NCBI GenBank assembly: GCA_021825465.1
Contig: JAKAGX010000002.1
Coordinates: forward strand, 1 to 36,638
Origin: a bacterium
Lineage (GTDB): Bacteria; Patescibacteriota; Minisyncoccia; UBA6257; GWB1-50-10
Reading direction: 5' to 3'
DNA length: 36,638 bases
Shown: piece after piece, positions 2,383-23,548 of the stretch
Layout: the number at the start of each line of letters is the position of its first letter
How positions within the stretch are numbered: position 1 is the first letter of the stretch
Notes under the pieces: generated by a model
Seen by the model: the letters and a program-made list of their open reading frames with translations, nothing else
Database searches by the model: none
Told to the model about the DNA's origin: nothing
Made by a program: the position numbers and the translations under genes

Positions 2383-3993
2383 ATGAACTTACTTAGCATC
2401 ATCTTCGATAAATTCTCAACGAAAGAAAGGAAGCTTTTTCTCGGCGGCATTATTCTCGTTGTCCTTCTCCTTATATTCCTGGTGTTCCTCATCATACGAG
2501 ACTCTGGCACCTTCGTTTCCATTCCCGGAGGGTCCTATACGGAGGGTATCGTAGGTCAGCCGATCAACATCAATCCAATCCTCTCTGCAAACCCCACCGA
2601 TCAGGAAATGAGCCTTCTTTTGTATTCCCGCCTTTCCAACCTCCTCCAAACATGGAATGCGAGCTCCGACGGCAAAACCTACACCCTGGAGCTTAAAGAT
2701 GGCTTGAAGTGGAGCGACGGGCAGCCCCTTACAAGCGATGACGTCCTCTTTACCATCAATACGGTGCAAAATTACAACGCCCATTCTCCTTTCTATCAAA
2801 GTTGGCAGGGCGTCTCGGCGGAGCGCGTGAGTTCCCTTCAAATAAAGATAACCCTTCCGAATCAAAACGTCTTCTTTATGGACAATGTCGACAATCTCCC
2901 CGTAATACCGGAACACATTTACGGGTCGATACCGGCGGAGAACTACTCGCTCTCGGATTACAAACTGCAGCCGATCGGGAGCGGCCCCTATCTCTTCAAA
3001 AGTTTTGCAAAAAGGAAGGATGGCTTCATAACGTCGTATGAACTTGCCGCAAATCCCTTCTACGCCGGAACCAAGCCGCTTATACCGACCTTCTCGTTCA
3101 AATTTTTCGAAAATACCGACGAAGTCACCCAAGCCCTGGAACTCCACCAGATCAACGGCTACGGCTCGATGTGGCCGACCGGCATCGACACCTCCCTCTT
3201 GAAAGGCTTTGTTGTCGACACGATCCCGGCATCCGACTACTACGCTGTCTTTTTCAATCCTGCCGTGAACCCCATACTGAAGGACCCGAACATACGGGCG
3301 GCCCTCACCATGAGCATCGATACGAATGAGATCATTGATAAGGTCCTCTCGCCGGAAGCGACGCCGGCGGCAGGACCGGTTCTCATTCCGGGAATTCCGG
3401 CCCCGACATCGACATCGAGCACATCGACGGCAGCAAGCCTTGTCAGCAAGTATAAATCGAAAAACAAAAACCAGCCCCTCACCATCACCTTGTCGGTACC
3501 GGACGTTCAATTCTTGAAGAACGTGGCGCAAATCATCCAAAGCGACTGGGAAAGCATCGGCATCGATCAGGTGAACATTCAAACCGTCGATATGTCAGAT
3601 CCGGTGAATTCCCCCCTTAAGACCAGGGATTATGACGCGCTTCTTTTCGGAAACTTCCTTCAAAATCCCGAAGATCTCTTCCCCTTCTGGCACTCCTCTC
3701 AAACAACCTATCCCGGCCTCAATCTTGCTTCGTACCAAAGCACGAAAGCCGACAATCTCATGGAAACGATCAGAGAAACCTCCGACGAGGGCACGCGGCA
3801 AACGCTTCTTGCAAATCTTCAATCGACCATCATGAACGATGACCCGGCGGCTTTTCTTTTCTCGCTCCCTTATCTATACATCCACTCGGACGACCTTCGG
3901 GGATTTGCAAGCGGACACGTTGCATCGCCTTCCGACCTGTACCGCGACGTGAGCCACTGGTCGATCGCGGAAGTGCAAGTGATAAAACCATGA
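2383..3993 (+). CDS. ABC-transporter family-5 solute-binding protein (peptide/nickel type), N-terminally membrane-anchored
   Basis: 536 aa. The N-terminal TM helix is LFLGGIILVVLLLIFLVFLII. The SBP_bac_5-like motif is LKDGLKWSDGQPLTSDDVLFTINT. No permease or ATPase genes are adjacent. Confidence 0.75.
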   Translation: MNLLSIIFDKFSTKERKLFLGGIILVVLLLIFLVFLIIRDSGTFVSIPGGSYTEGIVGQPININPILSANPTDQEMSLLLYSRLSNLLQTWNASSDGKTYTLELKDGLKWSDGQPLTSDDVLFTINTVQNYNAHSPFYQSWQGVSAERVSSLQIKITLPNQNVFFMDNVDNLPVIPEHIYGSIPAENYSLSDYKLQPIGSGPYLFKSFAKRKDGFITSYELAANPFYAGTKPLIPTFSFKFFENTDEVTQALELHQINGYGSMWPTGIDTSLLKGFVVDTIPASDYYAVFFNPAVNPILKDPNIRAALTMSIDTNEIIDKVLSPEATPAAGPVLIPGIPAPTSTSSTSTAASLVSKYKSKNKNQPLTITLSVPDVQFLKNVAQIIQSDWESIGIDQVNIQTVDMSDPVNSPLKTRDYDALLFGNFLQNPEDLFPFWHSSQTTYPGLNLASYQSTKADNLMETIRETSDEGTRQTLLANLQSTIMNDDPAAFLFSLPYLYIHSDDLRGFASGHVASPSDLYRDVSHWSIAEVQVIKP

Positions 3994-4967: not shown

Positions 4968-4979
4968 CGTCTGGGCAGG

Positions 4980-5103
4980 CCCCCACACCTAAGCGAAAGT
5001 GTGTATCCATTTATCTTTTCACTTACTATCGATACTAAAGCGAATAACAAAGAGAGATTTAAAATGTAAAACACTAAAGAAATTTCCTTTCGCTTAGGTG
5101 TGG
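4980..5103. mobile_element. MITE-like non-coding insertion with perfect terminal inverted repeats, flanked by a 7-bp direct duplication
   Basis: A 21-nt perfect inverted repeat, GCCCCCACACCTAAGCGAAAG, lies at 4979-4999 with its complement at 5087-5107. It encloses an AT-rich 87-nt core. GGGCAGG is present at 4973-4979 and again at 5104-5110, the first 7 nt of tRNA-Leu. Confidence 0.55.
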
Positions 5104-5187
5104 GGGCAGGTGGCGGAACCGGCAGACGCGCAGGCTTCAGGAGCCTGTGGGAGCAATCCCGTGAGGGTTCAAGTCCCTCTCTGCCCA
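5104..5187 (+). tRNA. tRNA-Leu (anticodon CAG)
   Basis: The acceptor stem is GGGCAGG/TCTGCCC. The anticodon arm is CAGGC-TTCAGGA-GCCTG with anticodon CAG and G37. The long variable arm is TGGGAGCAATCCCGT. The T arm is GAGGG-TTCAAGT-CCCTC and the discriminator is A. CCA is not encoded. Confidence 0.9.
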
Positions 5188-8790: not shown

Positions 8791-8828
8791 GGAGCGGTTT
8801 CACCAAAAGAGCCGCTCCTATTTTTTTA
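8791..8828 (+). terminator. rho-independent terminator (potentially bidirectional; overlaps the ileS stop)
   Basis: GGAGCGG at 8791-8797 pairs with CCGCTCC at 8812-8818, followed by a T run. An A run precedes it, so it could also terminate the convergent ileS. Confidence 0.6.
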
Positions 8829-11800
8829 TCCCGATCCAGATCGGATCGCCGTCGAACTTCGTCTCGATCTCAGCGTCGAACTTGTCGGAACGCTTGAGGA
8901 AAATTTCCGAAGCGTTTATTTCTTTCATCAGGAGTTTTTCATTGCGCCCCACAATATTTTTAACCTCGGGTTGGGCTTCAATGAGAAGCGTTATCTTGTC
9001 TTTGGGAACAAACCCGCCGTCTTGGCGAAGATCTTGGATCATGCGCACGAGCTCGCGAACCGTTCCCTCCTCTTTAAGCTTCGGCGTGATCACCGTGTCG
9101 AGGACGAAATCCTCTTTTAACTTGGAGTCGAAGGTCACTTCTTTTACATTGATTTCATCCTTTAAAATTTCGAGAAGAGCCGCATCCATCTTCGATCTCG
9201 AATCCTTAACCGCGAGCGACGCGAGGGGCTGGCGTACTTTGATCCCCAATTCCGCACGCTTCGCGAGGGCAGCACTCGCGAGATCGCGCACCGTCTTCAT
9301 GCCGTGTAACAATTTCGAGTTCCGAGTTTCGAGTTTCGGGCTGGTCTTAGGCCATTCCTCCAGGTGGACCGAGAGCTCACCCTTCAAAGAGACGGACCGA
9401 TAGAGCGCATCGGCGAAGAACGGCATAAAAGGAGCAAGGAGCTTGGTAAGTTCGGTAAGACAATACCGGAGCGTCGCCGACGCCGCGGCATAATCCTTCT
9501 TGTTGTCCGGCTTTTGGAGCCGCCTCCGCGAACGGCGGATATACCACCGCGAAAGGTCGTTCACGAACTCTTCAATCGACTTGCCGGCGCCGCCGATATC
9601 ATACGCATCAAGGGCTTTGGTCGAAACAGCGATGGCTTCGTCGAGGCGCGCGATGATCCACCGATCGAGAACGTTCGATTTCGCGGTCGGCGCTTTATAT
9701 TTGGCGCTTTTATCGGCGTACGTCCGGTAGAAAACGTACGAGTTGTACATCATGAGGATGAACTGACGGAGCACTTTCCCGAGGTCTGCTTCGTCGAAGC
9801 GCTTCGGTTCGCCCGGCGCATTCACGGTATAAAAATACCACCGGACGGTATCGGCGCCGTATTTTTGGATCATGTCCCACGGGCTCACGGTATTTCCCTT
9901 TGACTTCGACATCTTTTGGGCGTTCTTATCGAGCAGGAGGCCCAAGGAGATCACGTTCCGGTACGGTGCTTTTTTCTTCAAGAGCGTTGCGACGGCAAGG
10001 AGCGTATAGAACCAGCCGCGCGTTTGATCGATCCCTTCAACGATGTAATCGGCGGGATACAGAAGCTTTGTCTTGTTCTCGAAAGGATAGTGGTCTTCGG
10101 CGAAGGGCATCGATCCGGAATCGAACCAAACGTCCGCGACCTCGGGAATCCGCTTCATCGTCCCGCCGCATGTGCATTGAAAAACGGCTTCGTCGACGTA
10201 CGGTTTATGGAGATCGATCTCGCCGGTATCGTTCCGGGGGATTATTTTGAGGCCGAGCTTCCGGATTTCGGCGAACGTTATAAAATCATCGCCCCGCTTT
10301 TCTTTTTCAGCGATCGCCTCGCGCTCCGTCCACCCTTCGGCAACCTGGAAAAGCATCCAAATCGGGTACTCGTGCGTCACGAGAAGGATGTTCTTTCCCT
10401 CATACTTCGACTCGCATTCCTTGAGGAAATTCCACAAGCGCGTCCGAAGATCGCGGACCGACTCCCCTCCTTCGGGCCGCCGCTCGAATTTCGACTGAAA
10501 GGTCGGGAAAAGCACGTGGTATTTCTCATCGTGGCAGCCCATGAGGTCCGCCCCCAATTGGATCTCTTCAAGACGCTTGTCCACCTTCGCATCCGCCGTG
10601 CCCAGTATCCCAAGATCAATCTCATCGGTTTCCTTCGTCCGCAAAATATCGGACGTGATGACGACGTCGATCTTCTTCCCCTTCCGGGCAAGCTCGTGCT
10701 TGAACTTTTTGATCGACAATTCGACTTGCCGCTTGCCGCGGGCGGTCAGGTGGAATTTCGTTTTTGTCGCATCGATGATATCAAGGACGTTGTTTTCCGC
10801 TTCGCCGTGGCGCATGACCCAATAGCTGTTCTTCGGGCGGCCGAGTTTTTTTGCGAGCTCGCCGACGCCCCCTAAGACTTCGGTCCTGCCGCATTTTTTG
10901 CAGACCCAAACCGGAAGCGGCGTTCCCCAATACCGTTCGCGCGAGATCGCCCAATCCTTGACATCCTTCAGCCATTCGCCGAATCTTCCGTTTTTAATGG
11001 TCGCAGGGACCCAGTTCACCGTCTTATTCGAAGCCAAAAGCTCGCGCTTCAATTTGGACATGCCGATGAACCACGAATCGCGCGCGTAGTAAAGGATCGG
11101 CGTGCCGCATCGCCAGCAAAACGGGTATTCGTGCTCATACTTTTCGGTCTTTAAAAGGAAATTCCGCTCCTTGAGAAGTTCGAATATCTTTTCTTCGGTT
11201 TCTTTCGCCTTCACGTACATCCCCGCAAGCTCCGGGACATCGGCGGTGAATTTCCCCGACGTATCGACGGTATGATGTTTCGGCAAGCCGACCTTCGTTC
11301 CCAATTGGTAATCGTCCTCGCCGTACATGACGGCCGTATGAACGACGCCGGTCCCGTCTTCAGTCGTCACGAAATCGGCCGGATATACCCGATACGAGCT
11401 CTCTGTTTTCAATTTTTTGACGTCGAAGAGCGGTTCATACCGCAAGCCGACGAGATCCTTGCCACTGAAAGTATTGAGTATCTGGTATTTAGTATTGAGT
11501 ACTTTATCTGCCAAAAGAGAAGCGATAATGTATTTTTCATCGCTCCCTTCAATACTGACTACTGTATACTTGATACTCTCGCCAACTGCGAGGGCGACAT
11601 TTCCGGGGAGCGTCCACGGCGTCGTCGTCCATGAAAGGACGTAGGTATTGCCATCGGTCGTAAAGCTTCTGCCGATCGTCTGGTTCGGCAAAAGCCTGAA
11701 CTTCATGTACACCGACATATCCTCGGTCGTCTTGTACCCTTGGGCGAGCTCGTGCGACGACAAGGCCGTCCCGCACCGCGTGCACCACGAAATCACCTTA

Positions 11801-12492
11801 TGCCCCTGGTAGAGGAGTTTTTTCTTGTGGACCTCGGAGAAGATCCACCACAAGGTCTCCATGTAATTCTTGTCGTACGTGATGTACGGATGATCCATGT
11901 CGAGCCAAAAGCCGATGCGCTCGGTGATCCGCTCCCACTCGTCCTTGTATTCCCATACCGACTCGCGGCATTTTTTATTGAACGCCGCAATGCCGTATTC
12001 TTCGATCTCTTTCTTCGATCTCAACCCGAGCTTTTTTTCAACCTCGATCTCAACCGGCAGACCGTGCGTATCCCATCCGGCCCGGCGCGGAACGGAAAAT
12101 CCGGCCATTGTCCTGTACCGGAGGACGATGTCCTTGAACGAGCGCGAGAGCACATGGTGGATGCCCGGACGGCCGTTCGCCGTGGGAGGGCCTTCGTAAA
12201 AAACGAACTTCTTTTTAGCTTTGTTCTTTTTGAGCGACTTCTCAAAAATGCCGTTTTCTTTCCAGAACTTCAACACCTTCTCTTCGACCTCCGGCAGGGA
12301 GAATGCGGAACCCGCCTCAAAAATATCCTTTCTGCTCCGATCCCCCCGGTTCGGCTGCGGCTTCTTCACTCCTCCTCGCTGGATTTGCTTTGCCAATACA
12401 GCATCGTCGTCGTTCTTTGCCTCGCTCGAACCGGAGTGGACGTCGCGACGAAAAACATCTTTGGGGCGGGTTCTGTCCGAATCATCAAGCAT
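8818..12492 (-). CDS. ileS: isoleucine--tRNA ligase (type 2-like) carrying an internal histidine-phosphatase-like insertion; 5' boundary uncertain
   Basis: 1224-aa ORF. Motifs present: PPTANGRPGIHH (HIGH region), the editing domain WTTTPWTLPGN, KMSKS, and zinc motifs CWRCG, CKKCG and CTCGG. Residues ~555-755 are not IleRS-like (see findings). The first ~62 codons coincide with a repeated RNA-like element. Confidence 0.93.
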   Translation of the reverse strand: MLDDSDRTRPKDVFRRDVHSGSSEAKNDDDAVLAKQIQRGGVKKPQPNRGDRSRKDIFEAGSAFSLPEVEEKVLKFWKENGIFEKSLKKNKAKKKFVFYEGPPTANGRPGIHHVLSRSFKDIVLRYRTMAGFSVPRRAGWDTHGLPVEIEVEKKLGLRSKKEIEEYGIAAFNKKCRESVWEYKDEWERITERIGFWLDMDHPYITYDKNYMETLWWIFSEVHKKKLLYQGHKVISWCTRCGTALSSHELAQGYKTTEDMSVYMKFRLLPNQTIGRSFTTDGNTYVLSWTTTPWTLPGNVALAVGESIKYTVVSIEGSDEKYIIASLLADKVLNTKYQILNTFSGKDLVGLRYEPLFDVKKLKTESSYRVYPADFVTTEDGTGVVHTAVMYGEDDYQLGTKVGLPKHHTVDTSGKFTADVPELAGMYVKAKETEEKIFELLKERNFLLKTEKYEHEYPFCWRCGTPILYYARDSWFIGMSKLKRELLASNKTVNWVPATIKNGRFGEWLKDVKDWAISRERYWGTPLPVWVCKKCGRTEVLGGVGELAKKLGRPKNSYWVMRHGEAENNVLDIIDATKTKFHLTARGKRQVELSIKKFKHELARKGKKIDVVITSDILRTKETDEIDLGILGTADAKVDKRLEEIQLGADLMGCHDEKYHVLFPTFQSKFERRPEGGESVRDLRTRLWNFLKECESKYEGKNILLVTHEYPIWMLFQVAEGWTEREAIAEKEKRGDDFITFAEIRKLGLKIIPRNDTGEIDLHKPYVDEAVFQCTCGGTMKRIPEVADVWFDSGSMPFAEDHYPFENKTKLLYPADYIVEGIDQTRGWFYTLLAVATLLKKKAPYRNVISLGLLLDKNAQKMSKSKGNTVSPWDMIQKYGADTVRWYFYTVNAPGEPKRFDEADLGKVLRQFILMMYNSYVFYRTYADKSAKYKAPTAKSNVLDRWIIARLDEAIAVSTKALDAYDIGGAGKSIEEFVNDLSRWYIRRSRRRLQKPDNKKDYAAASATLRYCLTELTKLLAPFMPFFADALYRSVSLKGELSVHLEEWPKTSPKLETRNSKLLHGMKTVRDLASAALAKRAELGIKVRQPLASLAVKDSRSKMDAALLEILKDEINVKEVTFDSKLKEDFVLDTVITPKLKEEGTVRELVRMIQDLRQDGGFVPKDKITLLIEAQPEVKNIVGRNEKLLMKEINASEIFLKRSDKFDAEIETKFDGDPIWIGIKK
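12308..12473 (-). ncRNA. structured repeat element, copy 2 (homolog of 14766-14930), inside the annotated 5' end of ileS
   Basis: The closing helix pairs GAACCCGCCCCAAAGATGTTTTTC with GAAAGGATATTTTTGAGGCGGGTTC. A 77-nt ungapped core differs at 8 positions from the copy upstream of ssrA. Substitutions in the helices are compensatory. Confidence 0.55.
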
Positions 12493-12500
12493 TGATGCTC

Positions 12501-12528
12501 ATTTTACCAGAAAATTTACATCTAACAA
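12501..12528 (-). promoter_or_regulatory. sigma-70-type promoter upstream of ileS
   Basis: On the minus strand: TTGTTA (reverse complement of 12523-12528), a 16-nt spacer, then TAAAAT (reverse complement of 12501-12506). The -10 ends 8 nt before ATG 12492. Confidence 0.45.
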
Positions 12529-12538
12529 CTCTCCCAAA

Positions 12539-12688
12539 CGGCTCTGATTTCTTCAAGAAAACCGTTGCGGAGTCCGAGCGGGCACGGTCCCGGCCAGTCC
12601 GTGGACCGGCTGGGGAGCGAGGATGAGCACGAGCGCGCGTTTCACGCCGGGAAACGCGACGCGTGTTTGCGAGAAGAAATCAGAGCCG
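12539..12688. other. GC-rich structured intergenic element closed by a perfect 16-bp helix (unknown identity)
   Basis: CGGCTCTGATTTCTTC at 12539-12554 pairs with GAAGAAATCAGAGCCG at 12673-12688. Internal hairpins include CGCGTTTC/GAAACGCG and CCGGTC-CACG-GACTGG (minus-strand reading). Confidence 0.4.
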
Positions 12689-12697
12689 ATCCGTCCT

Positions 12698-14284
12698 CTA
12701 CATCTCTTCCGGCGGCACAATACCCAAAAGGCGAAAGGTGTTCTCAAAAACGATGGCGGATGCGGTAACCAAGGCGAGCTTCGGCCGTTCACGCTCGCTG
12801 CCGATCACCTTTTCTTCTTCATAAAAATTGTGGAACGATTTGACGGCCCCCATGAGATACCGGGTAAGCCGATGGACTTCGTAATCCCGCGCCGACTCGG
12901 CAACAACATCGGGAAAAGAGGCAAGGCGGACCATCAGTTCGCGCTCGGCAACCGAACCCAAAGCACTGAGGTCTTGCGTCTTTGCTTTCACCGGAACGCC
13001 GGCCTTCGCGAGGATCTTTTTTGCGCGTACGAGGGCATACTCGGCATAAAACACGGGATTTTTCGACGAACGCTCCTTCGCTAAATCCAAATCGAAATCG
13101 ATGTGAGAATTCGCGCCGACCGCAAGGAAGAAAAACTTCGCGACATCAACACCGACCTCATCCACGAGATCCTCGAACGTGACGAACGTCCCTTTACGCT
13201 TCGACATTTTGACAAACTCTTCCCCTTTCTTGATGAGAATGGCCTGCGTTATCACAACGTCCGATCTTTTGAATTTCAAGATGTCCGCGACCGCCTGGAT
13301 CCGCCGCACATAGCCGTAATGGTCGGGGCCCAAAACATTGATCTTCCAGTCAAACCCCCGTTTTTTGGTCTCGAGATAGTGGCCGGCGTCGACCAAAAAA
13401 TATGTCGGGAGGTTATCTTTCGTAAGAAGCACCCGGTCCTTGTCGTCGCTAAAATCGGTCGTTTTGAGCCACACGGCGCCGTCGCGTTCATATACCTTTC
13501 CCGACTTCCGAAGGAGCCGCAACGCCTTTTCGGGAAGTTTTTTCTTCCGAACGCTCCGCTCCGATGTATACCGATCGAAATGTATGCCGGATTTTTTTTC
13601 GATGACGTGCTTGATGCCCTCCAAAAAATCATCCGCCGCCCGCTCGCCGACGGCCTCCGGGTCTTCCCGATGCCGTTCCACGAACGCGCGGTTCCTGCCC
13701 GCCCATTCTTTGACGTATTCGCCTTGATAAAATTCTTCGGAGCTTTCGATGAATCCCAATGCGGCAAGGATCGATCTTCCGAGCGTTAAAACCTGATTGC
13801 CGCTGTCGTTCACGTAGTATTCGCGTTCGACGTCGGCACCGGCAAAAGCAAGGACATTCGAAAGCGCGGTTCCGTAAAAACCGCCGCGGCCGTTCGCAAG
13901 CGTCAGGGGTCCCGTGGGGTTTGCCGATATGAATTCGACTTGCACGCGCCCCTTGACCGACCGGGAAGAACCGTACTTCATGCCCGCTTTTATAATCTCG
14001 CCGATCTCCCTTTGAAGCGACTTCTTCGAGACCCAAAAATTAATGAAGCCGTTTTCCGAAACGCCGATCCGGTCCACCGCGTCGATCGGAGACCTCCGAA
14101 ACGAATCCGCGAACTCGTTTGCCGCTTCCCGCGGAGATCTTTTTTCGGACCTCGCAAGCGCAAATGCGATGTTTGTCGCATAGTCGGCATCGGTCGCCTT
14201 TTTATCCGGAACTTCGACCGAAAATCCGGTCTCAAGACCGGTCATCTCCTTCAGCTTTCTTTCTATTTCCTCTTTTATCGTCAT
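12698..14284 (-). CDS. argS: arginine--tRNA ligase
   Basis: The track ORF extends to 14518, but that part overlaps smpB antisense and is not ArgRS-like. The real N-terminus, MTIKEEIERKLKEMTG, starts at ATG 14284. Also present are the N-terminal Arg_tRNA_synt_N-like domain, SANPTGPLTLANGRG (HIGH-equivalent) and a C-terminal DALR-type domain. Confidence 0.9.
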   Translation of the reverse strand: MTIKEEIERKLKEMTGLETGFSVEVPDKKATDADYATNIAFALARSEKRSPREAANEFADSFRRSPIDAVDRIGVSENGFINFWVSKKSLQREIGEIIKAGMKYGSSRSVKGRVQVEFISANPTGPLTLANGRGGFYGTALSNVLAFAGADVEREYYVNDSGNQVLTLGRSILAALGFIESSEEFYQGEYVKEWAGRNRAFVERHREDPEAVGERAADDFLEGIKHVIEKKSGIHFDRYTSERSVRKKKLPEKALRLLRKSGKVYERDGAVWLKTTDFSDDKDRVLLTKDNLPTYFLVDAGHYLETKKRGFDWKINVLGPDHYGYVRRIQAVADILKFKRSDVVITQAILIKKGEEFVKMSKRKGTFVTFEDLVDEVGVDVAKFFFLAVGANSHIDFDLDLAKERSSKNPVFYAEYALVRAKKILAKAGVPVKAKTQDLSALGSVAERELMVRLASFPDVVAESARDYEVHRLTRYLMGAVKSFHNFYEEEKVIGSERERPKLALVTASAIVFENTFRLLGIVPPEEM

Positions 14285-14310
14285 AAATCTTATTTTTAGT
14301 ATATACCAAG

Positions 14311-14766
14311 ATGAGGTACTATGAATACCATACAATGGCCATATTTGCGGAAAACAAAAGAGCTCTCTTCGACTACGAGATCCTCGGGGCATTCGAGGCC
14401 GGCATTGTGCTGAAAGGCTACGAAGCAAAGGCCGTAACGAGCGGCCGCGTGAACCTTTCGGGATCCTACGCTTCCCTCGTGCGGGGCGAGCTTTGGATCG
14501 TGAATCTCGACATCCCACCCTATCAGCCGAAGAATATCCCCGGCCTATACGATCCCAAGCGGTCGAGAAAACTCCTCGTTACCAAAAGCGAACTCGATGA
14601 ACTTATCGGAAAGACGAAGGGGTTGACACTTATTCCGATGAAGATGTATAGTAAGCGCGGCAAAATAAAGCTCGAGATCGGACTCGCAAAATCGAGGAAG
14701 AAGAAAGACAAGCGCGAGGTCATCAAGCAACGCGAAACTCAGAAAGAAATCAAGCGCTTTATCTAG
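14311..14766 (+). CDS. smpB: SsrA-binding protein SmpB
   Basis: Motifs NKRALFDYEILGAFEAGIVLKGYEAKAV and KLLVTKSELDEL, with a basic C-terminal tail. The alternative start ATG 14335 (MAIFAENKRA...) matches the usual SmpB N-terminus better. Confidence 0.9.
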   Translation: MRYYEYHTMAIFAENKRALFDYEILGAFEAGIVLKGYEAKAVTSGRVNLSGSYASLVRGELWIVNLDIPPYQPKNIPGLYDPKRSRKLLVTKSELDELIGKTKGLTLIPMKMYSKRGKIKLEIGLAKSRKKKDKREVIKQRETQKEIKRFI

Positions 14767-14930
14767 AGCCCATCTCAAGAGTATCTTTCGTCACGAGCCT
14801 CCGGTTTTCCGAGCGAGGCAAGGAACGACGACGAAGCTGTATCGACAAGGCAGATCCAGCGAGGAGGAGTGACGAAGCCGCAGCCGGAAAAGCGAAGGTA
14901 CAGTAGAAAGGATACTCTTGAGGTGGGCTC
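14766..14930 (+). ncRNA. structured repeat element, copy 1, 4 nt upstream of tmRNA
   Basis: The closing helix pairs GAGCCCATCTCAAGAGTATCTTTC (14766-14789) with GAAAGGATACTCTTGAGGTGGGCTC (14906-14930). A second helix pairs CCTCCGGTTTTCCG with CGGAAAAGCGAAGG. There is a purine-rich internal bubble. The apical hairpin is GCTGTATC-GACAAGGCA-GATCCAGC. Confidence 0.55.
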
Positions 14931-14934
14931 CTAT

Positions 14935-15271
14935 GGGGGCGCACGCTTCGACAGGAAAGCTCTTTGAAAGTAGCAAGCCGAGGGGCGGTAAACTCGTAAA
15001 ACTGCCGCACAAAAGAACTGACAACAATAAAGTTGCAGCCCCGGCATTGGCGTTCGCTTAATGCCGGCCCCGGTTCCACGAGAATCGGGCATCGGTCCTC
15101 TCTTCCCGCAGGAGGATAACCGGTGTCATATCGCGGGATCGCTCGCCCCAAGGGGTTCCCCATACCGGCGAGTTAAACCATCGGGAACGATTTTGCTCTC
15201 TTTTCGAGAACTAAGCTTGTAGAATACTCTCAAATAATTTCTTGGACGAGGGTCCAATCCCTCCGCCTCCA
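14935..15271 (+). ncRNA. ssrA: tmRNA (transfer-messenger RNA)
   Basis: The 5' end is GGGGGCGCACGCTTCGACAGG. The 3' end is GGACGAGGGTCCAATCCCTC-CGCCTCC-A. The acceptor helix GGGGGCG/CGCCTCC contains the G3-U70 alanine identity pair. The tag reading frame ends ...GAC AAC AAT AAA GTT GCA GCC CCG GCA TTG GCG TTC GCT TAA (DNNKVAAPALAFA*), with the stop codon inside a hairpin. It lies next to smpB. CCA is not encoded. Confidence 0.9.
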
Positions 15272-15281
15272 CAATCAAAAA

Positions 15282-15306
15282 GGCCGGCATTCATGCCGGC
15301 CTTTTT
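15282..15306 (+). terminator. rho-independent terminator of ssrA
   Basis: GGCCGGCA-TTCA-TGCCGGCC followed by TTTTT. Confidence 0.85.
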
Positions 15307-15352
15307 GATTGGTTGCTGCAGAGCGACTCGCGACGGTCCATTCCCTCCCCGT

Positions 15353-15381
15353 TTGCATTTTGGCGCATTTTTTATTAGTAT
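15353..15381 (+). promoter_or_regulatory. sigma-70-type promoter of the infC-rpmI-rplT operon
   Basis: TTGCAT (15353-15358), a 17-nt spacer, then TAGTAT (15376-15381). Confidence 0.45.
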
Positions 15382-15387
15382 TCTCGT

Positions 15388-15924
15388 ATCGCTTATCAAA
15401 GACCATACAGACCAGCGCCCACCCCGCGGCAGAGAATAAACGGGGAAATAACGGCCATTGAGCTTCGTGTCATCGATGAATCGGGAGAAAATCTCGGCGT
15501 CATGAAGAAAGAAGAAGCTCTTGCGAAGGCCATGCTCGCGGGACTCGACCTTATCGAGATCGCTCCGCAAGCCGTGCCCCCCGTCGCGAGGATCATGAGC
15601 TTCGATAAATGGCGGTATCAAAGGGAAAAAGAAGAAAAGCGATCGAAGCAGGCACAAAAACAAAAAGAACTGAAGCAGGTGCAGATCTCAGCCCGGATCG
15701 CCGAGAACGACATGGCGATGAAAGCGAAACAGGCCGAGAAATTCCTTGCGGAAGGCCACAAGGTTGAAATTCACCTCCGGCTCCGGGGAAGAGAAAAGGC
15801 GAACAAAGAATGGGCACTGGGACGCATAAAAGAATTCACGGGGAAAATAACCATACCGTACCAAGTGACCATGGAACCGCGGCAAGGAGGAAGAGGATAC
15901 CTCATGCAAATAACCAAGAAATAA
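15388..15924 (+). CDS. infC: translation initiation factor IF-3 (non-AUG start; exact start uncertain)
   Basis: The track ORF starts at ATG 15502 (MKKEEALAKA...). The frame is open from 15379, and the upstream part encodes the conserved IF-3 N-terminus RINGEITAIELRVIDESGENLGV. There is no in-frame ATG, GTG or TTG there. The candidates are ATC 15388 or ATA 15436, in line with the known AUU-type start of infC. Confidence 0.85.
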   Translation: MAYQRPYRPAPTPRQRINGEITAIELRVIDESGENLGVMKKEEALAKAMLAGLDLIEIAPQAVPPVARIMSFDKWRYQREKEEKRSKQAQKQKELKQVQISARIAENDMAMKAKQAEKFLAEGHKVEIHLRLRGREKANKEWALGRIKEFTGKITIPYQVTMEPRQGGRGYLMQITKK

Positions 15925-15925
15925 T

Positions 15926-16096
15926 ATGAAGAAAAGCGTATCAAAAAGGATCAGAATAACGAAATCGGGCAAGGTTCTTCGCCGGGCAATGGCCCTGGGC
16001 CATTCGCGGGCGAATAAAAGAACGGTGCAGATCAAGCGCAAAAAAAATGCCCGCACCTTGGGAAACGTCGATGTACAAAAACTTATCAATAACTAA
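15926..16096 (+). CDS. rpmI: 50S ribosomal protein L35
   Basis: Missing from the ORF track because it is under 60 aa. Translation: MKKSVSKRIRITKSGKVLRRAMALGHSRANKRTVQIKRKKNARTLGNVDVQKLINN. It lies between infC and rplT. Its stop overlaps the rplT ATG (TAATG). Confidence 0.85.
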   Translation: MKKSVSKRIRITKSGKVLRRAMALGHSRANKRTVQIKRKKNARTLGNVDVQKLINN

Positions 16097-16443
16097 TGCC
16101 AAGAGTAAAACGAGGCACAATTGCCCATAAAAAAAGAGAAAAGCTCCTCAAAAAGAGCAAAGGGTATAAGTGGAGCCGAAAATCAAAGGAGCGCGCCGCA
16201 CGCGAAGCGCTTCTTCATGGTCTTGCGAGAAAGCTAAAGGGCAGAAAGGAAAAGAAGAGGGCTTACCGCACGCTTTGGGAAACCGAAATCAATGCGGGAG
16301 CGAGACTCCAAGGCACGACCTACAGCAAGCTCATCGGTGCGTTGAAAAAGGCAGATATCAAACTCGACAGAAAGATCCTTGCCGAACTTGCCGGCAACGA
16401 ACCGGACACTTTTAAAGCAATAATCGACTCCCTTAAGGGGTAG
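16096..16443 (+). CDS. rplT: 50S ribosomal protein L20
   Basis: 115 aa. The N-terminus is MPRVKRGTIAHKKREKLLKKSKGY. It sits in the conserved infC-rpmI-rplT order. Confidence 0.93.
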   Translation: MPRVKRGTIAHKKREKLLKKSKGYKWSRKSKERAAREALLHGLARKLKGRKEKKRAYRTLWETEINAGARLQGTTYSKLIGALKKADIKLDRKILAELAGNEPDTFKAIIDSLKG

Positions 16444-16930
16444 TCGTCTGCTTCTTCGGCTGCTGCACCTTCCTTGTAATGGAGGTGTACGCTTTTTTGA
16501 GATTCGATTTCAAATTCGGGGCCTTCAGCATCCGCAAGGCATCTTTGTAGAGGAACCAGCCGTACCCTTGATGTTCCCGCGGCACGATGGTAACCGACTG
16601 CGTTTTCGTTTCCGCCAAATAGTAGATCACGAGGCGCGGGATCCGCTTTTTTTCCTTCGTATAAAAGACAAATCGATCGGAAACCTTGAACCAGTTGATG
16701 AACCGCAAGTTCGGCGCTTTGATGCCCGTTTCTTCCTCGACTTCCCGCAAGGCTGCCTTAAAGCTCTTTTCTCCTTCGGCCAGCTTCCCCTTCGGGAAAT
16801 TCCAATAACTGCCCCCGTGGTACAAGAGCAGAAACTTTATCCCTTCCTCCGCCCGCCTGAAGATGATCACGCCTGCGGAGATCGAAAGGTCGCCCTCTTT
16901 TTTATTACTCACCGATGATTGGTCCGGCAT
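16433..16930 (-). CDS. NUDIX hydrolase
   Basis: 165 aa. The Nudix box is GKLAEGEKSFKAALREVEEETGI. Confidence 0.8.
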   Translation of the reverse strand: MPDQSSVSNKKEGDLSISAGVIIFRRAEEGIKFLLLYHGGSYWNFPKGKLAEGEKSFKAALREVEEETGIKAPNLRFINWFKVSDRFVFYTKEKKRIPRLVIYYLAETKTQSVTIVPREHQGYGWFLYKDALRMLKAPNLKSNLKKAYTSITRKVQQPKKQTTTP

Positions 16931-17573
16931 GGTCTCGTAAAATAGGTTGTTTTAACGTTTGTTTCGGTAAAATGAGGTCCGGCACCATAAAGAGAAGGAT
17001 CGCTCCAGCAAATGCCGCAAGGGATCCCAAAATGAAGATGAAATCAAACCCCAAGAGGAGCGCAATGCCACCGCCAACGAATGCCATGACGGAAGAAATG
17101 ATGTCGATGCCGAAGTGGTCGAGCGTCCACTCGAGCGAGTAGTGATCTTTATCCAAATGCCTCGAAAAGATCGCCGGCCAGGAAGAAGAATACAGAGCGA
17201 ACGCAAGACCCTGTACCACCATGGAAGCGAGAAGCGCCGGAACGCTCCGGACGGCCAAAAAGATCAAACACACGAGGCCGCCGAGTAAAAGTCCGATGAG
17301 GAGGGCGTAAAAGTCATCCTTTTCCCCCTCATGCTTGTCCAAGTAGAACGAAATGGGCACTTCGGAGATCGCCTTCACCAAATAGTACAGCGCAGCAGCA
17401 GCTCCGACGGTAAATACGTTCGCCGCGCCGATCCGTTGCAATATGAAAACCGCAAAGATCGGAGAAATGAGCCCCCATCCTCCCCAAAACAAATAGTCGG
17501 AGAGGATGAAGAACCGCACTACTTTGTTCATCTTCATTTCGCCGAAGCTTATTTTAAAGCGAGGGAATTTCAT
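16905..17573 (-). CDS. polytopic membrane protein (about 6 TM, MFS-half-like)
   Basis: 222-aa hydrophobic ORF with no specific motif recognised. The start is uncertain because MKMNKVV offers alternative Met codons. Confidence 0.55.
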   Translation of the reverse strand: MKFPRFKISFGEMKMNKVVRFFILSDYLFWGGWGLISPIFAVFILQRIGAANVFTVGAAAALYYLVKAISEVPISFYLDKHEGEKDDFYALLIGLLLGGLVCLIFLAVRSVPALLASMVVQGLAFALYSSSWPAIFSRHLDKDHYSLEWTLDHFGIDIISSVMAFVGGGIALLLGFDFIFILGSLAAFAGAILLFMVPDLILPKQTLKQPILRDHAGPIIGE

Positions 17574-17591
17574 GGGTTCGATAGTTAGAGA

Positions 17592-20084
17592 CTAGCCTTT
17601 TGAAACTTGAAAATCAAATGCCCCGTTTTGGAACGTAATGGTAACCGTGTCGCCGTTGCCGAGGCTTCCATCGAGGATCTTGTTCGCTAAAACGCTTTTA
17701 ATGTCATCGGATATGACCTTCCGCAAGGGGCGCGCGCCGAAAACCGGATCGTACCCCCGCCTTCCAAGCTCACCCAATACCGCATCGTCGTATACGATAT
17801 CGATGCCCTTATCCTCCCCCAACGCCTCCTTCAATTCATTGACCGACAATCCGGCGATCTTCTTGATCTCGTCTTCCTTCAAGTCCCTGAAAACGACGAT
17901 ATCCGAGAACCGATTCAAGAGTTCGGGCCTGAAAAAATCGGACAGCTTTTGCTTCAATTCGCCTGCAATATCCTCGACCCGCTTTCCTTTTTCAATCTCC
18001 GATTTTATGAAGTCGGAGTTGGCATTCGACGTCGCGATAATGATGGTATTTTGGAAATCGACAGTCTTCCCCAAGCTGTCGGTCAGCCGCCCGTCGTCGA
18101 ATACTTGAAGGAAAAGGTTCAAAACGTCGGGGTGGGCCTTTTCAAACTCGTCGAGCAGCACCAAGGTATAAGGATTATCAGAAACGGCGTCGGTCAACGT
18201 TCCGGTCTTCGATCCGTCGGGAGTGCCGATCAGCCGGAAAATGCTCGTCTTGTCCTGATACTCGGACATATCGAAGCGCTGCATGGCCGTTTTTGAACCG
18301 AACTGCACTTCCGCAAGGATCTTCGAAAGTTCGGTCTTTCCAACGCCGGTCGGACCAACAAAAAGAAATGCGGCGATCGGTCCCCCCTTCCGAGAAAGCC
18401 CGCTCCGATACTCCCGAAGCGCCCGAGCAACCGCGGAAACTGCCGCGTCCTGATTGATGAGCTTTTTATGAATGACATCCTCGAGCCCCAAAAGCTTCGA
18501 GGCTTCGTCCGCCGTAACCCTTTGGATCGGAATTCGCGAAAGGTTTTCCGCAACCATATCCACGTCTTGAACAGAGATCGATTTCTTTTTGTTTTCGACC
18601 GCCTCGGCAAGCGTTTGCTTCAGGAGATCGACGGCGCTTCCCGGCAAAAGCTTTGCGTGAAAATACCGCTTCGCAAGATAGACGGATTCCTTAATGACGC
18701 TGAAGGGGACGAAAACGCGGTACTGCCGCTCGAGGAGAAGGCTTTGGTAGATCAAGAATTTGACGGCTTCTTCTTCACTGATCTCGTCGACCCGGACCAC
18801 CTCGAATTGTTCGAGAAAATCAGACCGCGGCTCGATGTATGTTTTGAATTCACGGGGATACGTTTCACCGATCACGGGAATGGCCGCGCTTTTTACGATC
18901 GGCAAAATAATATCGATCGCATTCACGGTTTCTTTCGACGTTCGGAAAAGGTCGTGCATATTAGGGACAAAGAGAACGATATTCCCCGCAAGAAGGATCT
19001 CCTCGGTGATGTCGTTCAAGCGAGCGGTCAAAACCTCCGGCGTAGCATTCCCCAAGAGATTGCCGATCTCGAGGGACACCAGCCGCTTGTCAAAGAGTTC
19101 TTCGGGAACTTCGTCTTTTATAATGGAAAACGCCAAATGATCGATAATGGTCGACTTTCCCGCCCCTGCTTCGCCGACCAAAATGGCGTTCGGCTTCCCG
19201 GGCCGCGCGATGACCTGAAGGAGCTCCTCATATTCTTTTTCGTGGCCAATGAGAAAACCGACGGCTTCGGAGCGCGCCAAGTCGGTAAGGTCCGTCGAAA
19301 ATTTGTCGAGCGTCGGCGTCGGCCGGGCCGTCCAAGCACGATTCATGGTCCGATGCCTCAAGAATCCCGGCTGGTGGGCAAAGCCGCCGATGATCTTCGG
19401 CATGAACCGCGGGGCGCCGAATATCTTCCGCCATTTGCCGAACACTACCGCGGATTCGACGTCCTCCTTTTTAATGCCTGATGCAATGAAAACCTTTTCA
19501 AGGTCGGCGTCGCCGACATCGAAGATGCCGGCAAACAGATTTCGAGGATAAATAAAAACATCGTTATGGCTGCGCGCATTTTCATATGCCCGGGACACCA
19601 AATCGCCCAAAACCGAAAGATAACTTTCTTTCGAAAACTTTCCCTTGCCATCAAAAGCGACGGCAGCTTTTTGGAGAAGGATCTCGGGTTTCACATCCAA
19701 GCGCTTCAAAATTTCACAGATATCGTCACGCTCAACGAGAAGTTCTAAAAGAACGAGATAAAAACTCACATTGGCCCCTTTCGATTTTCTGAATGCGGAG
19801 CTTAAAATGCGGTATGAGGATGGCGTCAGAGCGTCGCCGACGTTCCCTTTCCCGCGCCCGATCTCCACAAGGTTCCGCTCGCCGTCCCCAATGTGCATGG
19901 CTCGATCGGCAAGAAACAAAGCAAAAAGAATGCCGAGAGCGATAAGCCTCGCGTTCTGCGACAAGAGTAAAACCAGCGTCACGGCAACCACGACGACATA
20001 TGCCGAATAACCGAGGAGCCGCGCGAGAAAATCACCCGCTTGGCTCAAAAATATCCGTTTGCTTTTAAAATACAGATCAGACAT
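17592..20084 (-). CDS. membrane-anchored Clp/Hsp100-family AAA+ ATPase (two nucleotide-binding domains)
   Basis: 830 aa. Two N-terminal TM helices are followed by Clp_N-like repeats. NBD1 has Walker A GEAGAGKST. NBD2 has Walker A GPTGVGKTE, Walker B LVLLDEFEKAH and FRPELLNRF. Confidence 0.85.
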   Translation of the reverse strand: MSDLYFKSKRIFLSQAGDFLARLLGYSAYVVVVAVTLVLLLSQNARLIALGILFALFLADRAMHIGDGERNLVEIGRGKGNVGDALTPSSYRILSSAFRKSKGANVSFYLVLLELLVERDDICEILKRLDVKPEILLQKAAVAFDGKGKFSKESYLSVLGDLVSRAYENARSHNDVFIYPRNLFAGIFDVGDADLEKVFIASGIKKEDVESAVVFGKWRKIFGAPRFMPKIIGGFAHQPGFLRHRTMNRAWTARPTPTLDKFSTDLTDLARSEAVGFLIGHEKEYEELLQVIARPGKPNAILVGEAGAGKSTIIDHLAFSIIKDEVPEELFDKRLVSLEIGNLLGNATPEVLTARLNDITEEILLAGNIVLFVPNMHDLFRTSKETVNAIDIILPIVKSAAIPVIGETYPREFKTYIEPRSDFLEQFEVVRVDEISEEEAVKFLIYQSLLLERQYRVFVPFSVIKESVYLAKRYFHAKLLPGSAVDLLKQTLAEAVENKKKSISVQDVDMVAENLSRIPIQRVTADEASKLLGLEDVIHKKLINQDAAVSAVARALREYRSGLSRKGGPIAAFLFVGPTGVGKTELSKILAEVQFGSKTAMQRFDMSEYQDKTSIFRLIGTPDGSKTGTLTDAVSDNPYTLVLLDEFEKAHPDVLNLFLQVFDDGRLTDSLGKTVDFQNTIIIATSNANSDFIKSEIEKGKRVEDIAGELKQKLSDFFRPELLNRFSDIVVFRDLKEDEIKKIAGLSVNELKEALGEDKGIDIVYDDAVLGELGRRGYDPVFGARPLRKVISDDIKSVLANKILDGSLGNGDTVTITFQNGAFDFQVSKG

Positions 20085-20457: not shown

Positions 20458-20733
20458 GCGAACTCCGCTTTGCCGAACAAACCGTCTCGGAGGACGAGCG
20501 GCCATGGTGCCGTGCAGGATGCATCTTTTCGGAACCGGGCGTTCGCCATCTCCTGCGGATGGCGCCGCCCTGCGCTCTCGTGTCGCTGAATCTGCTTCGC
20601 AGATGCCAAGCTCAGCGACACTCCGAGAGCTTCCTGAAAGATGCATCCCGCACGGCGAGCGAGTCCGAGAGCGAGCGCAAATTTCTCGGTGGGAAATTTG
20701 ATAGCGTGTTTGAGAGGTAAAGCGGAGTTCGTG
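20458..20733. other. about 276-nt imperfect long hairpin / rod-like structured element of unknown identity
   Basis: Nested helices: GCGAACTCCGCTTTGCC (20458-20474) with GGTAAAGCGGAGTTCGT (20716-20732); GTGCAGGATGCATCTTTTCGG (20511-20531) with CCTGAAAGATGCATCCCGCAC (20634-20654); GCTCTCG...GTGTCGCTGA (to 20589) with TCAGCGACAC...CGAGAGC (from 20612). The apical hairpin is ATCTGC-TTC-GCAGAT. Confidence 0.45.
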
Positions 20734-23364: not shown

Positions 23365-23397
23365 CAGTGCGCCCACGAGGAATTGAACGTCGCTTTG
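23365..23397 (-). repeat. direct-repeat copy of the tRNA-Arg 3' end (pseudo-tRNA fragment)
   Basis: CAGTGCGCCCACGAGGAATTGAAC at 23365-23388 is identical to 23474-23497, and similarity continues for about 9 more nt with 2 mismatches. No matching 5' acceptor strand is present, so it is not a complete tRNA. Confidence 0.7.
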
Positions 23398-23476
23398 CTC
23401 CCTAACACCTTGCGGTTTTAGTATTTCCACCACGGGGAAACTCCCGTTTCCCCGACCCCCTTCCCGTTCAATTCAG

Positions 23477-23548
23477 TGCGCCCACGAGGAATTGAACCTC
23501 GATTTTATCCTTCGGAGGGATACGCTCTATCCGTTGAGCTATGGGCGC
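23477..23548 (-). tRNA. tRNA-Arg (anticodon CCG)
   Basis: Minus-strand cloverleaf: GCGCCCA TA GCTC AACGGATA GAGC G TATCC CTCCGAA GGATA AAAT CGAGG TTCAATT CCTCG TGGGCGC A. CCA is not encoded. Confidence 0.9.

Follow-up and report, generated by a model that had tools for sequence, protein, structure and literature searches.

What is the long hairpin that separates smpB from ssrA, the transfer-messenger RNA (tmRNA) gene, in a Patescibacteria genome (GTDB lineage Minisyncoccia; UBA6257; GWB1-50-10) of which contig JAKAGX010000002.1 was analysed here over a stretch of 36,638 nt (the window)? An earlier note on this DNA had taken it for one of two copies of a novel 6S-like RNA. The hairpin is probably a copy of a new family of small, non-autonomous palindromic insertion elements of one Patescibacteria clade, similar in kind to the Rickettsia palindromic elements (RPEs) and to the ERIC and bcr1 repeats, and it is neither a separate RNA gene nor a 6S RNA. 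Comparison of orthologous loci shows that the element was inserted at several unrelated sites and was later lost from some of them. The copy that raises the question, copy 1, is built and flanked as follows.

14311 to 14766, plus strand: smpB, assigned from its open reading frame, its translation and PF01668 homologues
14766 to 14930, plus strand: copy 1 of the palindromic element, in the smpB-ssrA spacer, a putative pre-tmRNA leader or smpB 3′ tail
14766 to 14788, plus strand: closing helix of copy 1, 5′ arm, pairing with 14908 to 14930
14820 to 14835, plus strand: 'bubble' left strand of copy 1, AAGGAACGACGACGAA, probably in a non-canonical helix with 14861 to 14876
14836 to 14860, plus strand: apical hairpin of copy 1, GCTGTATC-GACAAGGCA-GATCCAGC
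14861 to 14876, plus strand: 'bubble' right strand of copy 1, GAGGAGGAGTGACGAA, Shine-Dalgarno-like and with an in-frame GTG
14908 to 14930, plus strand: closing helix of copy 1, 3′ arm, pairing with 14766 to 14788
14935 to 15274, plus strand: tmRNA gene (ssrA), Rfam RF00023, 118.2 bits, E 8.7e-46

The last base of the smpB stop codon (TAG, 14764 to 14766) is the first base of copy 1, which is followed by a 4-nt gap (CTAT) and then by tmRNA. The 165-nt hairpin first noticed at this place is borne out by an RNA fold of -82.0 kcal/mol (z -9.3), a stability that none of 200 shuffled sequences attains. Its closing helix comprises 23 contiguous pairs in both the minimum-energy and the consensus structures and represents the terminal inverted repeats of the element (GARCCC...GGGYTC), which vary between copies. 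The second copy (copy 2; 12308 to 12473, minus strand) is likewise real, with a fold of -80.1 kcal/mol (z -7.9), but it lies inside the ileS coding sequence and is not just co-oriented with that gene, as had been thought. An ungapped core of 77 nt indeed differs between the two copies at 8 positions, and the compensatory stem changes described earlier extend further: 36 of the 44 aligned differences fall in paired columns, and 11 pairs have changed on both sides and still pair. Over five full-length copies the consensus structure holds 58 pairs. In these copies 94.8% of cells pair, whereas shuffles reach 88.3% and slid partners 37-44%, and double changes are found in 16 of the 58 pairs, a number reached by 0 of 500 shuffles. 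Nine pairs with double-sided changes belong to the closing helix (helix 1), and four of the eight apical pairs covary among ten distinct copies. The hairpin is strand-asymmetric, the complement of copy 1 giving a weaker fold (-67.9); the earlier strand argument drawn from G-T pairs is weak, with about 11 G-U columns against 7 A-C columns.

The differences pile up in the stems, and the two purine-rich strands are almost invariant; the right strand, GAGGAGGAGTGACGAA, is identical in all five full-length copies and nearly so in the diverged ones. These strands had been described as a large internal loop, a description that gives way to a better one when the ten distinct copies are aligned. The strands then face each other as G-C, (G.A A.G), A-U, C-G, (G.A A.G), C-G, (G.A A.G), C-G, (G.A A.G), and the diverged copies replace A-U by G-C, C-G by U-A and one G.A/A.G by G-C/C-G. 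The facing G.A/A.G positions together with the covarying Watson-Crick columns argue that the 'bubble' is probably a continuous, closed non-canonical helix of four tandem G.A/A.G pairs, each flanked by covarying Watson-Crick pairs, and that the whole element is a rod. Tandem sheared G.A pairs are stable in both RNA and DNA.

A free-standing, trans-acting 6S-like RNA gene, with two paralogous copies processed from longer transcripts, would account for several of these features, as the element has in common with 6S RNA (RF00013) its length of 165 nt, the rod outline of closing stem, central purine-rich region and terminal hairpin and, if processing from a longer transcript is counted as shared, its mode of production; the covariation and the stronger fold on the strand co-oriented with the host genes also fit. 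Such a gene is nonetheless extremely unlikely. Rfam searches with both copies, at the gathering score and at E<=10, matched no family, 6S included, in agreement with the first reading of the motif as an unrecognised one. The centre is probably closed, a helix of tandem G.A pairs whose Watson-Crick pairs covary, and not the open bubble that mimics a promoter; copies lie in frame within the essential ileS coding sequence and within rnhB, and the element is missing from near-identical and related genomes and differs in location and copy number among genomes, unlike a conserved single-copy gene at a stable locus. The in-frame copies, the presence and absence among genomes and the closed helix together speak against a discrete 6S-like RNA gene. 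Integron attC sites, REP/RAYT, retrons and the hammerhead and hairpin ribozymes were dropped by eye, as their end and core motifs misfit and Rfam was silent.

The ileS copy provides the clearest view of the element as an insertion. It lies among the following features.

8818 to 12492, minus strand: ileS (1224 codons, ATG at 12492), from the open reading frame list, host of copy 2
12308 to 12473, minus strand: copy 2 of the palindromic element, an in-frame insert in ileS after codon 6
12501 to 12528, minus strand: promoter-like TTGTTA-16(TG)-TAAAAT, 8 nt before the ileS ATG, from a consensus scan and of predicted function

The reading frame crosses copy 2 without a break (MLDDSD[RTRPKDVF...IFEAGS]AFSLPEVEEK), and the Pfam tRNA-synt_1 domain of the product begins at residue 73. 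Orthologous loci, collected by way of SmpB homologues, show an uninterrupted ileS start in four relatives (L124, L125, L128, L131), where it reads MLDDSDKFSLPEVEE or a close variant, and the ATG and first six codons (MLDDSD) are kept in six genomes with synonymous variation. As the ATG and these six codons are conserved in relatives, copy 2 is a 168-nt (56-codon) in-frame insertion and not a leader. In the metagenome-assembled genome (MAG) FK_Sedi_B_Bin.358 (L003), which is 98.7-98.8% identical to window positions 10170 to 18325, a single nucleotide stands in place of 12311 to 12473 (junction MLDNLDNSAFSLPEVEE). This genome retains the hexamer TTCCGC, a match to the element's right end that outgroups lack; the six extra nucleotides favour a recent in-frame deletion there, and hence a recent loss rather than a gain in the window. 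Both copies are present in L135, whose SmpB is 97% identical. Relatives keep the TAAAAT box of the promoter-like site equally far from their ileS ATG. As the site ends 8 nt before the ATG, the ileS mRNA may have almost no leader, and if the site is a promoter the hairpin would begin about 19 nt from the mRNA 5′ end. Just upstream of this site, the argS-ileS spacer (12539 to 12688) holds a hairpin of about 150 nt with 24-nt arms that are 88% complementary, and the spacer sequence is unrelated in relatives. The isoleucyl-tRNA synthetase (IleRS) of this clade also carries an unusual fusion, a histidine-phosphatase domain (PF00300, E 2.4e-24) at residues 558-723 within the synthetase, an architecture shared by L125, L128 and L131.

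The smpB-ssrA spacer, the site of copy 1, is very short in relatives, measuring 0 nt (L128, L131), 4 nt (L134), 16 nt (L125) or 17 nt (L124). The MAG WY5.bin131 (L001) has TAG-AACC-AGAGCCCATTTCAAAAGTAT-GGGGG at this place, with 18 of 20 nt of the left arm of the element joined straight to tmRNA, and this stretch looks like a deletion remnant of the element. The 0-17 nt spacers and the WY5.bin131 remnant identify copy 1 as an insertion into a very short co-transcribed spacer. The near absence of a spacer in relatives also suggests that ssrA is transcribed either with smpB or from a promoter-like site inside it.

14623 to 14652, plus strand: promoter-like TTGACA-18-TATAGT inside smpB, a possible ssrA promoter of predicted function

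This site, of near-consensus sigma-70 type, has 11 of 12 consensus matches in the consensus scan, and its WY5.bin131 equivalent, TTGACA-18-TATAAT, occupies the same place. Whichever promoter drives ssrA, copy 1 would belong to the pre-tmRNA leader. The smpB stop codon of L128 (10430-10440) and L131 (8648-8658) abuts the first G of tmRNA (TAA followed directly by GGGGG), and RNase P cleavage would there make the smpB message end exactly at its stop codon. The ssrA gene of the window was not reported by ARAGORN though Rfam scores it at 118 bits.

Pattern and covariance-model searches found no copies in the window beyond copies 1 and 2. A scan for the exact core in one representative genome per species, covering 185,579 species, returned three further stretches, namely the WY5.bin131 ileS gene (L001), the smpB-ssrA spacer of L003 and the start of the WY5.bin131 RNase HII gene (L002, also L138). 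The first of these is orthologous to copy 2. The full-length rnhB copy follows codon 10 of the RNase HII gene in frame, giving a protein of 257 aa as against 193-204 aa in about 30 close homologues. The empty site, taken from P0123/L136, reads MMSNNLMKTTS followed by RYVIGVDEVGRG, and the filled site reads MMRNNLKKMA[RTHL...EMGS]EYVIGIDEVGRG, so that rnhB represents a second, independent in-frame insertion with a net gain of 55 codons; a search of the window itself for an rnhB gene found none. A covariance model built from the core and run against the window and the collected loci added four diverged instances. Two of these lie tail to tail just 3′ of the WY5.bin131 RNase P RNA gene (L002 3048-3114, plus strand, and 3157-3225, minus strand). 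The other two occur in L133, whose smpB-ssrA spacer holds them as an inverted pair nested within a larger closing helix; the copy at 1260-1325 there is inverted relative to the host transcript.

In all there are 11 instances of about 85-270 nt in four site classes (smpB-ssrA, ileS, rnhB and the rnpB 3′ flank), known from the exact-core scan and the collected loci, a thin sample of the size and host range of the family. Empty orthologous sites exist for ileS, rnhB and smpB-ssrA, and both the ileS and the smpB-ssrA sites are empty in L124, L125, L128 and L131. Given that the window, WY5.bin131 and L124 are about equally distant from one another by ArgRS and SmpB identities, the pattern of filled, empty and remnant sites implies several gains and/or losses.

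Some observations accompany these searches. The WY5.bin131 RNase P RNA (L002 2677-3046, plus strand) reaches only 61.5 bits where the gathering score is 100, so that standard annotation would miss it, and an HNH-type reading frame abutting a tRNA lies near it (L002 2060-2515, minus strand). A metagenome scan with GCGAGGAGGAGTGANGAAGCC gave no true copy among the matches listed (L004-L123); these belong to an unrelated, abundant freshwater-metagenome family (e.g., L011, L030, L040) that contains CACACGCGAGGAGGAGTGAYGAAGCCTCAA, often with a second CGCGAGGAGGAGTGATCA about 85 nt upstream, and shares a 21-mer with the element by chance through its Shine-Dalgarno and start context. Viral contigs held 0 core matches, and a degenerate core gave one chance-level match there.

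Among known systems, the closest parallel is with the RPEs, hairpin repeats of 105-146 bp that lack a transposase, occur in frame in 19 R. conorii reading frames, in intergenic DNA and in the genes for tmRNA and RNase P RNA, and are tolerated as extra peptide segments, with an unclear target-site duplication (PMC2229807, PMC10969869). The present element is similarly found in frame in ileS (+56 codons) and rnhB (+55 codons), both of which stay open, and directly before tmRNA and directly after RNase P RNA. The likeness, taken from published descriptions, is one of how the two work, and membership is unlikely as the phylum differs. Copy number is also much lower, the insertions seen so far are at extreme N-termini where RPEs occupy internal surface loops, and the conserved part is the internal tandem-G.A helix where in RPEs it is the whole element. 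The ERIC repeats of Enterobacteria and the bcr1 repeats of the Bacillus cereus group are imperfect palindromes of 127-155 bp that are transcribed with their neighbours, keep an RNA hairpin through compensatory changes, are not conserved in their distribution among related strains and can affect how stable an mRNA is (PMC3184786). The element resembles them as a hairpin repeat with compensatory changes and a patchy presence among relatives. It differs in that theirs are mostly intergenic insertions with TA or 5-bp target duplications, whereas here coding sequence holds half of the full copies and no such duplication is found. Among the papers searched, none links elements of these kinds to Patescibacteria or the candidate phyla radiation (CPR).

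Like MITEs (miniature transposable elements with inverted repeats) such as the Correia element, and like REP/REPIN doublets, the element is small and non-autonomous, with inverted-repeat ends that form a long stem, presence/absence polymorphism and nested or inverted pairs (L133, L002). It has no transposase reading frame, it has terminal inverted repeats, and it occupies unrelated sites with both filled and empty orthologous versions. The earlier note had named many copies at random loci with target-site duplications as what would mark a mobile DNA element; copies at unrelated loci are what was found, without a visible target-site duplication.

Several observations weigh against an insertion element. 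The termini are less conserved than the interior, unlike those of a typical transposase-bound MITE; in MITEs and REP/REPIN the ends are conserved for binding by a transposase or RAYT, and here they vary by compensated changes around a fixed interior. The copy number is low, with one or two exact-core matches per representative genome. A consistent target-site duplication is not found, there being none at ileS or smpB-ssrA and a possible CAG at rnhB only. The loci examined contain neither a parent insertion sequence or RAYT nor a transposase, HUH enzyme or reverse transcriptase that might be a partner. Loss in L003 and gain in the window are both possible for the ileS site. Finally, the ileS copy is far more conserved at synonymous sites than its host gene (0.185 against 0.66), which would not be expected of a decaying passenger.

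The open frame of the element raises the question of whether it is the encoded product that has been selected. In all full-length copies one frame, encoding a 55-aa peptide, is open, and on the pyrimidine-rich strand several more are. A portable N-terminal tag or domain (..SEArNDdEAV..IQRGGVtKPQP..SRKdIF..) would explain why this frame is in frame with ileS and rnhB and why copy 1 is in frame with smpB past its TAG. This has next to no probability in view of the pattern of change. The orthologous ileS elements of the window and WY5.bin131 (L001) show 0.185 synonymous and 0.123 non-synonymous differences (dN/dS about 0.63), as against 0.66 and 0.10 in the rest of the gene, and rates at the three codon positions are flat (0.125, 0.161, 0.125), indicating selection on nucleotides and not on the peptide, as the first reading had argued against a protein. 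In addition, the right-hand core lacks any synonymous change over five copies, diverged copies have stops in every frame, and the 5′ arm of copy 1 has a frame-shifting indel relative to copy 2. No homologue emerged from either database search: a profile of aligned insert peptides matched none of 5.8e9 proteins, a search that was evidently incomplete as it missed P0122, an insert-bearing protein in the database, and an exhaustive phmmer search of the 56-aa insert against 1.84e9 representatives returned one spurious repetitive protein only. Pfam found no domain in the inserts. AlphaFold models residues 1-57 of the insert-bearing RNase HII with a predicted local distance difference test (pLDDT) score below 50, as a disordered segment before a confident RNase HII fold; the alignment had no depth over the insert, and the disorder is weak support.

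Intervening sequences in RNA genes are a known trait of CPR genomes, and the very stable hairpin joining both flanks would also suit an intron-like or bypassed insert, with IleRS and RNase HII made without it. This is very unlikely. Both independent coding inserts add whole codons (+56 in ileS relative to outgroups, +55 in rnhB), the frame stays open through 14-20% divergence, which removal would not need, and no intron or ribozyme family was matched.

The low synonymous divergence of the ileS copy means that it is either constrained in place or younger than the host split. It forms the main puzzle and, together with the conservation of the G.A-helix core, keeps an RNA-level function alive as a minor possibility. 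The rod might have been exapted as a cis-acting RNA module, now under host-level selection for a role in the transcript. Candidate roles include protection of the smpB message 3′ end after RNase P cleavage, protection of the 5′ end of a near-leaderless ileS mRNA, a docking or processing site for a protein that binds double strands or G.A helices, and exposure of the Shine-Dalgarno-like GGAGG with its in-frame GUG. The synonymous differences and flat codon-position rates of the ileS copies are consistent with this account, as are three doubly compensated pairs in the orthologous ileS pair (window and L001), with pair retention above random substitution (P ~0.03). The core motif is present at smpB-ssrA in both the window lineage and the much-diverged L133, no site is further than about 30 nt from one end of a gene or stable RNA, and a promoter-like site directly precedes the ileS ATG. 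The account is nevertheless doubtful, as the element is dispensable: the 98.8%-identical genome cleanly lacks it in ileS, and close relatives lack it at both sites. The inverted L133 copy also speaks against it, and the Shine-Dalgarno-like motif is only 1-4 nt from the GTG, which has become GTA in one diverged copy. A stronger version, in which an undescribed structured RNA module spreads by insertion, is kept by purifying selection in host transcripts even within an essential aminoacyl-tRNA synthetase coding sequence, and is read by a factor that recognises the four-tandem-sheared-G.A helix, is an unlikely prospect to a similar degree; if true, this factor would serve the processing, stability or translation of pre-tmRNA, ileS mRNA and the RNase P RNA precursor.

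For the insertion element that is preferred here, the following course of events can be proposed. The element would be carried passively in host transcripts and proteins. Its in-gene copies survive because they have one open frame and a length divisible by three. To judge from this open frame and codon-multiple length, the coding copies would be translated as a disordered N-terminal peptide. Copy 1 would be transcribed as a pre-tmRNA leader, together with smpB, from a promoter within that gene, or in both ways, and an RNase P cut at 14934/14935 would free tmRNA and leave the rod on the upstream fragment, where it may either stabilise the 3′ end or undergo degradation. The rod of closing helix, second helix, tandem-G.A helix and apical hairpin may be kept by selection on its single-stranded form, either RNA or DNA, and whatever moves or maintains the element probably recognises this feature in trans.

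Other palindromes and repeats occur in the window. The 5′ end of tRNA-Leu(CAG) contains, at 4973 to 5110, a different palindromic element of 127 nt, whose inverted ends (GCCCCCACACCTAAGCGAAAG...) match perfectly over 21 bp and whose loop is AT-rich. CAGG is duplicated at both sides, and the terminal GGG of the element restores the acceptor-stem start GGGCAGG; no second copy was found in the window or the collected loci. A nested hairpin of about 270 nt at 20459 to 20731 (arms 20459-82/20708-31 and 20509-34/20631-56) fills an intergenic spacer that measures only 58 nt in L131. This hairpin matches nothing in Rfam and could be a further palindromic insert or a structured RNA. A 37-nt direct repeat (23365 to 23401 and 23474 to 23510, 89% identical) duplicates the 3′ part of tRNA-Arg(CCG) 109 nt away and resembles the scars that integration at tRNA genes leaves.

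Protein-coding palindromic repeats have been described as a peculiarity of Rickettsia. Gene calling placed the start of the RNase HII entry P0122 at the upstream ATG and kept the insert, and the internal GGAGG with its in-frame GTG represents a plausible false start that calls for caution in CPR gene calling. For RNA-motif discovery, the locus cautions that two covarying copies of a hairpin do not amount to an RNA gene. The regular tandem-G.A helix and the synonymous-site conservation in ileS provide concrete, testable leads, and a similar family in Patescibacteria, at ileS, rnhB, tmRNA and RNase P RNA, would suggest that the tolerance of selfish DNA in small genomes has had more than one origin.

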